A stretch of 64,000 bases of DNA from Planctomycetota bacterium (GTDB lineage Bacteria; Planctomycetota; UBA1135; UBA2386). Position numbers and translations under genes: made by a program. Within the stretch, counting starts at the first letter, position 1. Every line of letters begins with the position of its first letter. This document shows positions 24,367-51,428 of this stretch, in pieces. The notes under the pieces are model-generated. The model made no database searches and was not told the DNA's origin. It worked only from the letters and a program-made list of their open reading frames with translations. The stretch spans positions 32,001 to 96,000 of the forward strand of contig JBKAGP010000001.1 of the NCBI GenBank assembly GCA_046290465.1, read 5' to 3'.

Positions 24367-25245
24367 ATGACGACGACCCGACCGATGCCCACCGCACCCG
24401 CCCGGATCGGATCGCTGCGCACGCTGCTCGAGTCGGCGCGGCAGACGATCCTGATGCTGCGCCATCGGCGCGTGTTCTGGTACGTGCCGATCGCGCTGGT
24501 GCTGCTGTTCGCGTTCGCGTTCGTGGTCTCCGGCCGCGCCCACGACTCGGTCGACGGCGCCCACCTCTACTGCGTGATCGCCTGGTGGGGGCTCGGCACC
24601 GTGATCGTGCCGTGGACCACGCTCTACCTCGGGGTGCAGGCGGTGCACGGCGAGATCGAGGACCGCACCAGCCAGTACCTGTTCCTGCGTCCGGTGCACC
24701 GGGTGCCGCTGCTGCTCGGCAAGTGGCTGGCGGTGTCGCTGGTCGCGAGCCTGATCGCGTGCGGCGGCGCGGCGGCGCTGTTCGCCGGCGTCGGCGGCCA
24801 CCCGGACATGTGGCTCGACGGCCGCGATCCGGCGCTGCTGGCCACCTACTGCCAGGTCCTGTGCCTCGGCGTCGTCGCCTACGCCGCCACCGCGATGCTG
24901 TTCGGCGCCATGTTCCGCCGACCGCTGGCGTGGGCGGCGTTCTTCGTCGTCGGCGTGCAGATGCTGGCCGCCAACCTGCCGGTTTCGGCGGGCATGCGGC
25001 GCCTGACCATCACCGACCCGCTGCGTCGGGTGCTGCTCGACCAGCTCGAGCCGAGCCGGAAGCTGGCCCGCGACCTGTGGCCGGCCGAACGCGGCGAGGC
25101 GCTCGAGGTCGACGAGCTGGCCGGTTCGTTCGAACTGGAGTTGGGCAGTCCGCTGATCGACCTGCTGATCTTCACCGGCGTCTGCCTCACACTGGGTGCG
25201 TGGCGCTACGCACGGACCGAGTACGAGTCGAGGAACCGCGATTGA
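24367..25245 (+). CDS. ABC-2 type permease
   Basis: EIEDRTSQYLFLRPVHRVPLLLGKW motif; multiple TM segments. Confidence 0.85.
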   Translation: MTTTRPMPTAPARIGSLRTLLESARQTILMLRHRRVFWYVPIALVLLFAFAFVVSGRAHDSVDGAHLYCVIAWWGLGTVIVPWTTLYLGVQAVHGEIEDRTSQYLFLRPVHRVPLLLGKWLAVSLVASLIACGGAAALFAGVGGHPDMWLDGRDPALLATYCQVLCLGVVAYAATAMLFGAMFRRPLAWAAFFVVGVQMLAANLPVSAGMRRLTITDPLRRVLLDQLEPSRKLARDLWPAERGEALEVDELAGSFELELGSPLIDLLIFTGVCLTLGAWRYARTEYESRNRD

Positions 25246-26603
25246 GTGCGGCCGGCCCGCTGCCTGGCGGGAGCCTGCTGCTGCCCGAGGAGGCGCGCGA
25301 GCACAGCTCGCTGCTGTCGCAGGTCGGCTGGTTCAACCGTCTGCGGCTGGTGGTGGCGGCCGGCGTGATCTGGCTGTGCGCGCTGGCGACGCACGCGTTC
25401 GACCTGATCGAGGACCCGTGGCCGCTCTACCTGCTCGGCGCGGCGATCGTGCTGGTCGACGGCCTCTACATCGTCGCCTACGCCCGTCTGCAGCGCAGCA
25501 GCCTCGCCGCGGTCCGCCGCCACGTCTACCTGCAGATCGGCGTCGACCTGACGATCCTGACGGCCCTGCTGCACTACGCGGGCGGCATCACCAACCCGCT
25601 GGCGTTGTTCTACCTGTTCCACGCCTTCATCGCGGCGCTGGTGCTGTCGGTGCGCGCCGCGGTGATGGTGGCCCTGGTCAGCATGCTGTCCTTGCTGCTG
25701 CTCGGCTTCTCCGAACGCGAGGGCTGGCTGCCGCACCATCCGCTCGGGGTCGGCATGTTCGACCTGTTCGCGATCGACCCGCTCGGCCTGTGGCTGCTGG
25801 TGTTCGCCTACGCGACGACGCTGGCGTTCTCGATCTACTTCGTCTCGACCGTGCTCGCGCGGCTGCGCCGCCAGGAGCGCGAACTCGTGCGGCTCGGTCG
25901 CCACCTGGCGCTCAGCGAGAAGCTGGCGTCGGTCGGCACGCTCGCCGCTGGGGTCAGCCACGAGATCAACAACCCGATCGGGGTCATCAAGAACAAGGTG
26001 CAGATCCTGCGCTACCGCGTCGAGGACGGCGACGGCAAGGACAAGCTGCTGTCGGAGCTCGACGTCGTCGACAAGCACACGCGGCGGATCTCGAAGATCA
26101 CCGACGGCCTGCTGCAGTTCTCGCGCGAGACGCCGTTCGAGCTGCGGCCGCTCAACCTGCGCAAGCTGCTGCGCGAGGCCGAGGATCTGGTGCGCGTGCC
26201 GTTCCGCCAGGCCGAGGTCGAGCTGAAGCTCGACGACCGCGTGCCGGCCGACGTGGTCGTGCGCGGCTCGACCAACCACCTGCTGCAGGTGCTGATCAAC
26301 ATCCTGCTCAACGCCAAGGACGCGTCGGCCCGCCACGGGGTGGTGGAGCTGACCTGCTCGCTGCGCGGCCACGAGGTCGCGCTCGAGGTGCGCGACCACG
26401 GCAGCGGCATCGAGCCCGACGTGCTCGAGAAGGTGTTCGACCCGTTCTTCACGACCAAGGACGTCGACAAGGGCACCGGCCTGGGCCTGGCGATCAGCCA
26501 CGGCATCGTCGAACGGCACCACGGTCGCATCGAAGTCGAGAGCGAACTGGGCCGCGGGACCTGCTTCTCGATCCTGCTGCCGGCGGTGCCCCGCGACTCT
26601 TGA
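25242..26603 (+). CDS. Membrane sensor histidine kinase (PilS/RegB-like membrane domain, NtrB-type core)
   Basis: About 6 TM with GGITNPL; H-box AGVSHEINNP, N-box NILLNAKDA, DHGSGI and FFTTKDVDKGTGLGL; probable TTG start overlapping the permease stop. Confidence 0.92.
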   Translation: MSAAGPLPGGSLLLPEEAREHSSLLSQVGWFNRLRLVVAAGVIWLCALATHAFDLIEDPWPLYLLGAAIVLVDGLYIVAYARLQRSSLAAVRRHVYLQIGVDLTILTALLHYAGGITNPLALFYLFHAFIAALVLSVRAAVMVALVSMLSLLLLGFSEREGWLPHHPLGVGMFDLFAIDPLGLWLLVFAYATTLAFSIYFVSTVLARLRRQERELVRLGRHLALSEKLASVGTLAAGVSHEINNPIGVIKNKVQILRYRVEDGDGKDKLLSELDVVDKHTRRISKITDGLLQFSRETPFELRPLNLRKLLREAEDLVRVPFRQAEVELKLDDRVPADVVVRGSTNHLLQVLINILLNAKDASARHGVVELTCSLRGHEVALEVRDHGSGIEPDVLEKVFDPFFTTKDVDKGTGLGLAISHGIVERHHGRIEVESELGRGTCFSILLPAVPRDS

Positions 26604-26670
26604 CGAAACTAGGGATGGCGCCTTGGCGACCTGTGGACAACAACAGGTAGTCGGTCGCGTCAAGAAACCC

Positions 26671-26699
26671 TTGGCACCGGCCGTTCGCATTGCTATGGT
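26671..26699 (+). promoter_or_regulatory. sigma70-type promoter of the orphan RNA
   Basis: TTGGCA (26671-76), 17 bp, TATGGT (26694-99), with extended -10 TGn. Confidence 0.7.
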
Positions 26700-26704
26700 G
26701 CGCA

Positions 26705-26936
26705 TCCGTGTTGGGCGGTCACCAAGGGAGGGACCGACAGCACGGGTCACTCGAACTAGGCACTCGGGTGGCCCGACTCTGGTCACTTCGTTCTGCCGCT
26801 GCCCCGACGTGGGTGACTGACGTTGCTGACGGTGCCGCGACCGGCGGGTTGCGGCGTCGGGTTCGTCGGGTGCAGCGGCAGGCGGGGTCCTGAGGTTTCT
26901 GGGCGCCGCCGGCCGTCAGGTCGGCGGCGCTTTTTT
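26705..26936 (+). ncRNA. Candidate structured small RNA (unassigned family)
   Basis: Bounded by the promoter and an intrinsic terminator; three hand-folded helices rich in G-U pairs; no convincing CDS. Confidence 0.6.
26903..26936 (+). terminator. Intrinsic terminator
   Basis: GCGCCGCCGGCC-GTCA-GGTCGGCGGCGC followed by TTTTTT. Confidence 0.9.
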
Positions 26937-26964
26937 GTCGGGCCGCGCCTGCACGGGCCTCGGG

Positions 26965-27063
26965 GCTTACGCGGCCCGGCTTGCCGAGGTCGGGCCTGCA
27001 GAGCCCAGCCCGCGAAGCCCAGCCTGCAGAGCTCAGCCTGCCAAGGCGGACCGCCAAGGTCCT
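26965..27063. repeat. Degenerate 14-bp tandem repeat
   Basis: GCCTGCAGAGCCCA GCCCGCGAAGCCCA GCCTGCAGAGCTCA GCCTGCCAAGGCGG, with weaker flanking units. Confidence 0.65.
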
Positions 27064-27177
27064 GGCCCCAAAACCGCCGAAGGCTCGCCTTCTGGCGAGC
27101 CTCCGGTTCTTCCGGGCGATTGCAGCTTACGAGCGGCCGGGAGCTTGGGTCGACCGGTCGGCCGGATGCCGGCCTGA

Positions 27178-27223
27178 GCTTGCCGACTACAGTTTGCCGG
27201 CTACAGCTTGCCGACTAGAGCTT
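27178..27223. repeat. 14-bp tandem repeat x3 overlapping a stop codon
   Basis: GCTTGCCGACTACA GTTTGCCGGCTACA GCTTGCCGACTAGA GCTT. Confidence 0.85.
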
Positions 27224-27436
27224 CACGTTGACGATCTGGTCGACGTTGAAGTCGTAGCTGAACTCTTCGTCCACGTTGATCAGGCGTCCGGTGCCCTTGA
27301 ACTCGTTGAAGATGATCGCGCCGGACATCGAGCGGCCGTCCTCGAGGGACAGCTCGACCCAGTCGGCCTGGCGGGCGTTCATCAGCAGATCGTAGACTTC
27401 GTCGCGCGTGGGGCGTGCGGCTTGCCGGGTGGACAT
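27215..27436 (-). CDS. Small (73 aa) protein, possible Sm/Hfq/Rof-like fold
   Basis: AGGAG SD and strong codon bias; helix followed by VELSLEDGRSMSGAI and a final DQIVNVKL strand, resembling Sm1/Sm2 patterns. Fold assignment is by eye. Confidence 0.75.
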   Translation of the reverse strand: MSTRQAARPTRDEVYDLLMNARQADWVELSLEDGRSMSGAIIFNEFKGTGRLINVDEEFSYDFNVDQIVNVKL

Positions 27437-27664
27437 AGATTGGTCTCCTGTGCAGCAGTTCCTGGAGAGCGGGAGCTGCATCGGGTGGTTGGGGGCTTCG
27501 GGCTGGCGTGCCGTCGGCTGTCGGGTTGGATGGTAAGGCTGACGCGCCGGCGACCGTGAGACACCGGGGCTGCGGGCTGAGATCCGCAACATCCGGCCTC
27601 TCGAGAGGCAAAGGACGCCATTGCGTTCCAAGGCGACGACCGGCCGGGAGAGGCCAACCGAAAC

Positions 27665-28399
27665 CTAGGATTCGAGCCCGGATCCGTCCTCGGCCGTCGC
27701 CGGACCACTCCAGGACCTACCGCCCATGGCACCGACGATTTCGGCCTGGATCAAGAACTGCGACCAGGACTCGAACTGAGATGGAGTTTGCCATAGTTCG
27801 GCGAACTCGACAAGGTGGGTAAAGCCACCTCGCATCTTCGAGATTTCACGGATTCCGACCATTTCTCGGGCCTGCGCGAGCGGCTGGGGCAGGTCGATGC
27901 AGTAGGCCAGCCCGGCGTGCACCTGGCCGACGTCGGTGCTGTCGTCGTTGATCAGGCCCAGCAGCCTGGGGGCCGGCAGCGCCGCGTCCGGGAGCTGCAG
28001 CTCCTCGGCCAGTTCGCGCTGCAGGGCGGCGCCGAAGAAGGCCCGTGCGTCCGGTGCGCCCTGATCGTCGGCGTCGACCGGCTCGATGTGCCCGCCCAGC
28101 CCGATCGTCCACGACTCGTGCAGGCGCGCCTCGCCGCCCTTGCGGGTCCGCTGGACCAGCAGGATGCCACGGCCGTGCGGATCGCCGCCCGCGCGCCAGT
28201 CGCCGCAGCGCAGCATGCAGTAGGGGATCCACTGCTTCCACGCAGGCGTGCGTTCGGCCTCGTCGCGGTCGACGAAGCGGCCAAGCCGCATCGCCCGGCC
28301 GAGGAACGCGCCGGGCGCGTCGATCGGCTGGTAGCCGTGCGGCCAGTCGCCGCCGAAGAACGCGTCACGGTATACGACGAAGACCTGCTCCGTGGCCAC
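27665..28399 (-). CDS. Predicted NUDIX-family phosphoesterase
   Basis: KQWIPY, EARLHESWTIGLGGHI, RELAEE and GLINDDSTDVGQVH. Confidence 0.85.
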   Translation of the reverse strand: MATEQVFVVYRDAFFGGDWPHGYQPIDAPGAFLGRAMRLGRFVDRDEAERTPAWKQWIPYCMLRCGDWRAGGDPHGRGILLVQRTRKGGEARLHESWTIGLGGHIEPVDADDQGAPDARAFFGAALQRELAEELQLPDAALPAPRLLGLINDDSTDVGQVHAGLAYCIDLPQPLAQAREMVGIREISKMRGGFTHLVEFAELWQTPSQFESWSQFLIQAEIVGAMGGRSWSGPATAEDGSGLES

Positions 28400-51202: not shown

Positions 51203-51428
51203 ACGGGAGCCTCGCTCTGCGCTGCTCGCGCTTGCACGCGGGCCATCAAGTTGAACCGATGACCATTCGCCGGGCTCCGACCCTGAGGGCCAAGCGGGAT
51301 CAGGAGACGTCGCTGTGCGCGAGCATGGCGGCGCCGGCCTCTTCCCAAATACCCCGGGGGGAGCCCACCTGAACCCAAGGGTTCAACCGGCCTCCGTCGA
51401 CGGCAGATGGCGGAGCGAGGCCTCTCGT
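51203..51428 (+). ncRNA. ssrS: 6S RNA
   Basis: Closing stem ACGGGAG-CCTCGCTCTGC / GCGGAGCGAGG-CCTCTCGT; 5' AAGTTGAACCGATG; 3' CACCTGAACCCAAGGGTTCAA, close to the E. coli 6S CACCTTGAACCAAGGGTTCAA. Confidence 0.8.

Follow-up and report, generated by a model that had tools for sequence, protein, structure and literature searches.

RyhB is the small RNA (sRNA) arm of Fur regulation, and NrdR is known mainly for its narrow control over ribonucleotide reductase genes. NrdR boxes are defined, in PMC13584703, by C4, A6, A8, T9, T11 and G13 and a 15-16 bp linker, and at least 63% AT is required there between C4 and G13, a limit set with the E. coli and S. coelicolor proteins. Here we describe a non-coding RNA (ncRNA) of ~230 nt that lies behind tandem NrdR-type boxes in the window, a stretch of 64,000 nucleotides from contig JBKAGP010000001.1 of a Planctomycetota bacterium (GCA_046290465.1; genome G000 below). 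Homologues of the ncRNA are spread over three families within a single Planctomycetota order, namely the window's own family (f1) and two further families (f3 and f7). No NrdR-controlled ncRNA is named in the available portions of PMC4989314 or PMC4898720, and a literature search over titles and abstract openings returned neither an NrdR-controlled ncRNA nor an account of this RNA; the motif survey in PMC13584703 and the chromatin immunoprecipitation sequencing tables that accompany PMC4989314 are possibly relevant to this novelty.

A stand-alone structured RNA gene

The element is a structured ncRNA gene that stands alone, with a promoter and a terminator of its own, and we state this with high confidence (Table 1). 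As a sequence-only reading of this DNA had proposed, a sigma70-type promoter with an extended -10 element precedes it (one found, against a shuffle mean of 0.2), and a strong terminator with a T6 run closes it. The 241 nt enclosed between the two have a minimum free energy of -144.8 kcal/mol (z = -5.5), and 0 of 200 shuffles folded as well. The arrangement differs from that of a riboswitch or 5' leader, which would have a same-strand gene directly downstream: the terminator is followed by a convergent gene in 21 of 27 f1 loci and in 10 f3/f7 loci.

Table 1. Features of the ncRNA locus, in window coordinates
Feature	Position	Strand	Remarks
ncRNA	26706..26936	+	~230 nt; start predicted from the -10 element; fold, homologues, RNA contigs at 26702-26901 and 26734-26901
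Distal NrdR-type box	26606..26621	.	C4, A6, T11, G13 present; 4/8 AT between C4 and G13; strict in 32/58 promoters
Proximal NrdR-type box	26638..26653	.	16-bp linker to distal box; centre ~61 bp 5' of predicted start; strict in 51/58
A-rich tract, conserved, directly 5' of -35	26661..26668	+	from alignments; putative UP-element-like role
Sigma70-type promoter TTGGCA-17-TATGGT	26671..26699	+	with TG; homologues: TTG -35 in 46/58, TAnnnT in 45/58
P1 (= H1), sequence-constrained hairpin	26708..26743	+	near-invariant GGCGGU (26714-26719) and GGGAGG (26726-26731)
P2 (= H2), covarying stem	26744..26774	+	loop motif (U)AGGCA conserved; 9/11 pairs changed on both sides
P3 rod with three-way junction	26777..26894	+	base (CUCUGG-UC) conserved; distal part variable, absent in L015
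Intrinsic terminator	26901..26936	+	stem 26901-26932, 14 pairs including G-U; U6 at 26931-26936
Histidine kinase upstream	25242..26603	+	neighbour in f1 only; outside the element
73-aa Sm/Hfq-fold protein, convergent neighbour	27215..27436	-	no Pfam family; possible partner; linkage to ncRNA not obligatory

No Rfam family matches the element at gathering score. In a scan of 26300-27900 with E up to 10 the best match (E 0.24) lies outside the element and none falls inside the ncRNA, and the diverged homologues in L118, L120, L121, L157 and L164 are likewise without a match. The earlier reading saw no hallmarks of signal recognition particle (SRP) RNA, tmRNA or RNase P RNA and placed 6S RNA elsewhere in the window. 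The RNAs with which the element might be confused do map elsewhere: SRP RNA (RF00169/RF01854) matches at G000:6160361-6160459, RNase P RNA (RF00010) at G000:2158703-2159074 and tmRNA (RF00023) at G000:6293791-6294143, and the sole 6S (RF00013) match is a diverged one at window 51211-51420 (+), with an E of 0.002 that is under the Rfam cut-off. The SRP RNA (G000:C1:6160329-6160525, minus strand, L031) carries a long helix extension, scores under the large-SRP cut-off and stands directly behind a tRNA-Ser gene.

The fold proposed earlier, two 5' hairpins (H1 and H2, here P1 and P2) followed by a long rod, was recovered, with an additional small hairpin at 26812-26827 that creates the three-way junction of P3. 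Specifically, 44 of the 51 distinct 5' domains were aligned, seven being set aside for indels or a long P2, and in this alignment P2 holds 68 doubly changed cells against 19.1 +/- 3.5 after shuffling, and 0 of 500 shuffles reached as high. The rod covaries as well: among the 13 full-length members of the window's genus, the short L015, which has lost its distal rod, being excluded, the whole fold is 97.3% paired and 20 of 66 pairs are doubly changed. P1 behaves differently, its 5' strand being fixed in the 44 close homologues and its 3' strand shifting only between G-C and G-U, with no double change, a fixity that is owed in part to the way in which homologues were found. Compensatory changes in the outer P1 stem are seen by eye among the diverged members, which keep GGCGGU and a G-rich, GGGAGG-like stretch; in f7 this GGCGGU/GGGAGG core folds differently. 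The H1 loop had been said to expose a GGA/Shine-Dalgarno (SD)-like motif. AAGGGA does form the loop, but the last GG of GGGAGG is paired, so that exposure is partial, and the probability of an unpaired GGGAG is below 0.05 in 25 of 26 homologues. An alternative, mutually exclusive hairpin can form in this genome, but its pairing over the 13 genus members is 79%, compared with 97.3% in the main fold, and it does not covary (288 of 500 shuffles as high); the conformational switch built upon it is unsupported.

Covariation of this kind tolerates G-U pairs, both in P2 and in the genus fold, in agreement with the earlier argument from the many G-U pairs, and it points to an element that acts as RNA. 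This bears on the suggestion that the locus is a leaderless or short mRNA of the 61-codon open reading frame (ORF), or else an untranscribed DNA-level element. Such a reading can point to a GTG at the predicted start and to expression evidence that stays at contig level; the ORF itself, however, is not conserved, being anywhere between 12 and 150 or more codons long in 52 homologues, and of the 43 5' domains that could be measured, 21 lie out of its frame. With length and frame both drifting, a conserved coding gene was rejected, as the earlier reading had expected in finding no credible coding sequence, and we regard an mRNA or a DNA-level element as highly improbable.

Expression was followed in seven RNA runs, at contig level throughout. 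In run X8 a 200-nt contig from a relative covers 26702-26901, and in run X14, from a separate study, a 168-nt contig (26734-26901) stops at the same base; the contig of run X19, whose type is unrecorded, continues past that base. The 5' domain is covered in run X9, the contig of run X12 passes beyond the terminator and that of X10 enters from the kinase side, and in runs X1 and X2 the ncRNA was not covered. The metatranscriptome contigs from two studies that end at the terminator stem are a weak hint of expression. Taken together, conservation, covariation, the conserved promoter and terminator, decay of the ORF and this hint support the original proposal of an independently transcribed, structured sRNA. 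The RNA belongs to a family that is undescribed, also in Rfam, and would be a variant form of regulator-controlled sRNA.

Tandem NrdR-type boxes upstream of the promoter

Upstream of the -35 element lie two 16-bp partial palindromes, and over 58 homologous promoters the NrdR positions were counted as C4 in 55, A6 in 57, T11 in 54, G13 in 55, A8 in 29 and T9 in 21. Strict proximal boxes were found in 51 of these promoters against a shuffled mean of 1.9 (maximum 8), and strict tandems at the second box peak, 31-32 bp further upstream, in 26 against 0.006 (43 with one mismatch allowed), a comparison in which the promoters are related by descent and do not count as independent samples. The linker of the window pair agrees with the published 15-16 bp. 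Reciprocal scans connect these boxes with ribonucleotide reductase. In particular, a matrix built from the ncRNA proximal boxes ranks the box pair at the promoter of nrdJ (class II as assigned by Pfam) 4th in the intergenic regions of G000, whereas in the opposite direction a matrix built from nrdJ box pairs (selected by the published core, in 28 of the 30 regions upstream of nrdJ) places only 3 of 730,949 intergenic positions above the pair of the ncRNA, which is thus rank 4. A control scan found the box pair at 0 of 58 tRNA genes and at none of the 16S, 6S-like, tmRNA and RNase P loci. The gene nrdR is present in G000 (1255546-1256040) and in all five tested relatives from f1, f3 and f7.

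The gap between box and -35 is 16-21 bp in 54 of 58 promoters, a figure that the search window partly constrains, and the window pair sits off the core promoter, at about -61 and -93. In CRP class I promoters, an upstream site geometry goes with activation. By this analogy the position of the pair 5' of -35 would suit activation, and NrdR is reported in PMC4409342 to activate topA in P. aeruginosa. A strict box over the -10 occurs in 10 of 58 promoters, mostly in f7 and not in the window, and would suit repression there.

Since the boxes stand in tandem in front of the promoter, NrdR likely ties transcription of the ncRNA to the deoxynucleoside triphosphate (dNTP) pool; control by NrdR is probable. 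Two observations weigh against it. Many boxes, the distal window box included, fall under the 63% AT limit of PMC13584703: with E. coli and S. coelicolor proteins as the published yardstick, the proximal box holds 5/8 AT between C4 and G13 (borderline) and the distal box 4/8, and 5/8 is reached by 33 of 58 proximal and 13 of 58 distal boxes. Additionally, the upstream pair has apparently been lost in at least two f1 members (L153 and L154). The same low AT content, the position of f1 boxes outside the core promoter and the two members lacking them would fit a real ncRNA whose boxes are not functional NrdR sites for it, either belonging to another regulator or being weak relics, and whose role is unrelated to dNTPs. 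On the other hand, three families share all four critical positions as well as the spacing of 31-32 bp, the reciprocal scans retrieve nrdJ and the stable-RNA controls are negative, and we consider non-functional boxes unlikely.

Upstream of nrdR itself (G000:C1:1256156-1256171) one strong NrdR-type box and a weaker one 33 bp away suggest possible autoregulation. Further high-scoring pairs stand at G000:C1:4000516, in a long unannotated stretch, and at 1163542, where the pair overlaps the start of a gene beginning MRLGLTQSLRAEQRLIQSPQMIQAMQVLQLP, which presumably resembles rpoN.

A protein-binding 5' domain as the proposed mode of action

We propose that NrdR would sense the dNTP pool and set transcription of the ncRNA through the tandem boxes, and that the RNA would bind a protein partner with its conserved 5' domain (P1-P2), the adjacent Sm/Hfq-fold protein being one possibility, and would serve as a post-transcriptional arm of a dNTP/replication regulon comparable to RyhB for Fur. 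NrdR binding, the sign of control, the protein nature of the partner and its identity are all inferred. The distal domain appears dispensable, to judge from L015, and the 5' core is what persists across families. Because this common core is the 5' domain, a protein-binding RNA is preferred, and we give protein binding a little better than an even chance; the whole proposal, from NrdR control to a bound protein, is held tentatively and falls short of that.

The candidate partner lies beside the ncRNA. The label of an orphan fits a stand-alone gene but overlooks both the conserved boxes and the convergent Sm/Hfq-fold gene. In 10 f3/f7 loci the pair of ncRNA and Sm/Hfq-fold neighbour is retained and the kinase is absent. 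The protein has a highly conserved FNxFKGTGR loop and is found in 241 of 251 genomes of the class, its gene usually standing downstream of a Nudix gene (tex-nudix-Sm in G000). Pfam and a sequence search of the PDB gave no match for the 73-aa protein, and the Pfam Hfq family was not found in G000; the protein is a candidate for the cryptic Hfq of the class. Between ncRNA and this gene (window 26940-27215) are short CTGCAG-containing and GCTTGCCG-type repeats and the terminator of the minus-strand operon, a region that varies among relatives.

An NrdR-controlled RNA could instead act by base pairing to mRNAs, nrdJ among them, with help from the Hfq-fold neighbour; its seed would be either the invariant 5' GUUGGGCGGU or a C/U-rich, UCCUC-type anti-SD stretch. 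A C/U tract is conserved and single-stranded in f7, UCCUC recurs in the distal domain of other f1 genera, the P1 5' strand is invariant in 44 close homologues with a partner strand that changes only from G-C to G-U, the terminator is U-tailed, and cognate pairings with the nrdJ SD look good in G020, G024, G019 and G049. However, the C/U-rich stretch is lineage-specific and not single-stranded in the window's genus, where the matching UCCUGAG is paired, no exposed seed common to all members was found, and target scans, which were crude, gave no conserved target. In particular, pairing with the cognate nrdJ does not stand out (ranks 1-22 of 25; p = 0.06 by permutation over 12 non-genus pairs), and nrdJ was rejected as a target. 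The 5' seed has no perfect 10-11-mer complement near a start codon in G000; the complement of the f7 seed has seven exact off-locus matches that share no gene, in a reading of 17 regions that covered part of the one-mismatch matches; and a genome-wide duplex scan with six seeds over a crude set of 5,014 genes gave no convincing target. We hold base pairing to be rather unlikely.

The G-rich motifs of P1 also invite a ribosome decoy, in which GGGAGG would pair with the anti-SD tail and GGGCGGU with ACCGCCC in the decoding region of 16S rRNA, parking or slowing the 30S subunit under dNTP imbalance. For GGGCGGU a single exact complement exists in the window's 16S and none exists in 23S, and the loop variants are all SD-like with no conserved start codon after them. 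Against this, the 7-mer match was noticed post hoc, both motifs are mostly paired within the ncRNA, their order is reversed relative to what a single antiparallel partner would need, and the anti-SD binding energy resembles that of ordinary ribosome-binding regions in rough cofold values; a 30S decoy is improbable.

The earlier idea of a protein sponge survives in part, as protein binding remains the leading mechanism with another partner; a CsrA-type GGA sponge is unlikely, no csrA (PF02599) having been found in the 94%-complete, single-contig G000 and the RNA having a single conserved GGA. A lead to a common binding protein, not established, comes from the nrdJ leaders, whose repeated UGGUC hairpin loops resemble the loop motifs of the ncRNA (113 GGUCR against 49 shuffled in 23 related leaders). 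The class II nrdJ of G000 (C1:661139-661590, minus strand, L201) has a structured leader, ~250-600 nt long across relatives, with conserved (U/C)UGGUC(A/G) hairpin loops and no Rfam match in the four loci scanned, possibly a cis-regulatory RNA. AGGCA/GGUCA showed no strand bias in leaders, a GGUC-loop hairpin before the dnaA-like gene was not conserved in 23 relatives, and a GG(U)CA-loop regulon is unproven.

Distribution and genomic context

Among 60 relatives searched at the DNA level, true homologues carrying the 5' motif numbered 26, and all belong to f1 (26 of its 36 genomes, and 13 of the 14 in the genus); the remaining matches in the list were short noise. A pattern scan of species genomes returned 49 stretches, mostly titled Planctomycetota; a search with the 5'-domain model gave f1 matches only; and diverged copies in f1, f7 and f3 were found by reading the DNA beside the neighbour gene. 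A model of promoter plus core at E < 1e-5 recovered 24 of 26 f1 and 5 of 5 f7 genomes, many of them in its training set, and in the two missed f1 genomes the ncRNA is present by eye. Searches of f2, f5, f6, f8, f9 and f10 genomes and of other classes gave no real homologue, and 3 of 150 genomes in a phylum sample were positive, all f1. Thirteen weak model matches outside known loci (12 in other families, one a second match in f1) proved on reading not to be homologues.

At L307 (G041, family f6) GGGCGGT stands near the beginning of a coding gene, behind an NrdR-like box and a similar promoter, a hint that the motif may also act at the DNA level in promoters of this kind. In two f7 genomes the RNase P RNA (L118:1187-1548 and L120:3684-4051) is no more than ~2 kb away from the pair of ncRNA and neighbour. 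A location near oriC was rejected, the GC-skew minimum lying at 4.22 Mb. The sole DnaA-like gene in the crude gene set (G000:C1:343743-344975, plus strand) is divergent and far from that minimum, and canonical DnaA boxes are very few in G000.

Comparison with known systems

If our proposal is right, dNTP homeostasis would gain a post-transcriptional level of regulation through an RNA under NrdR, much as iron control did through sRNAs. The locus also draws attention to an Sm/Hfq-fold protein that is near-universal and unannotated, in a lineage where searches gave neither Pfam Hfq nor CsrA. The impact is limited by the range of three families in one order, known from metagenome-assembled-genome-type records only. 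It is possible, if doubtful, that the ncRNA and the lineage-specific Hfq-fold protein couple deoxynucleotide supply to translation or replication, as the first non-coding RNA of an NrdR regulon, in Planctomycetota lacking canonical Hfq and CsrA.

Among described RNAs, 6S RNA is of similar size, but the ncRNA gives no match to its model and the 6S-like RNA of the window is a separate locus. The Alu domain of large SRP RNA likewise consists of two stacked 5' hairpins with a long rod behind them, whereas the ncRNA has neither an S-domain nor a model match. CsrB/RsmZ-type decoys are also structured stand-alone RNAs with conserved loop motifs, one of which contains GGA in our case; they carry many GGA motifs where the ncRNA has one, and G000 yielded no csrA. 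RyhB/Fur-type sRNAs share with the ncRNA a stand-alone gene with a promoter, a site for a metabolite-sensing regulator, a U-tailed terminator and an Hfq-fold gene in the genome, but the ncRNA is longer and far more structured, no common exposed seed or target was found for it, and Pfam Hfq is not among the families detected. The closest parallel is the NrdR regulon as portrayed in PMC13584703 and PMC4409342. Here the regulated unit would be an ncRNA, the f1 pair lies 5' of -35 and many of the boxes have an AT content below the published limit. Shared features are a pair of 16-bp boxes with C4, A6, T11 and G13, separated by a linker of 15-16 bp, recurrence of the motif at the class II nrdJ promoter of this genome, and the presence of nrdR.
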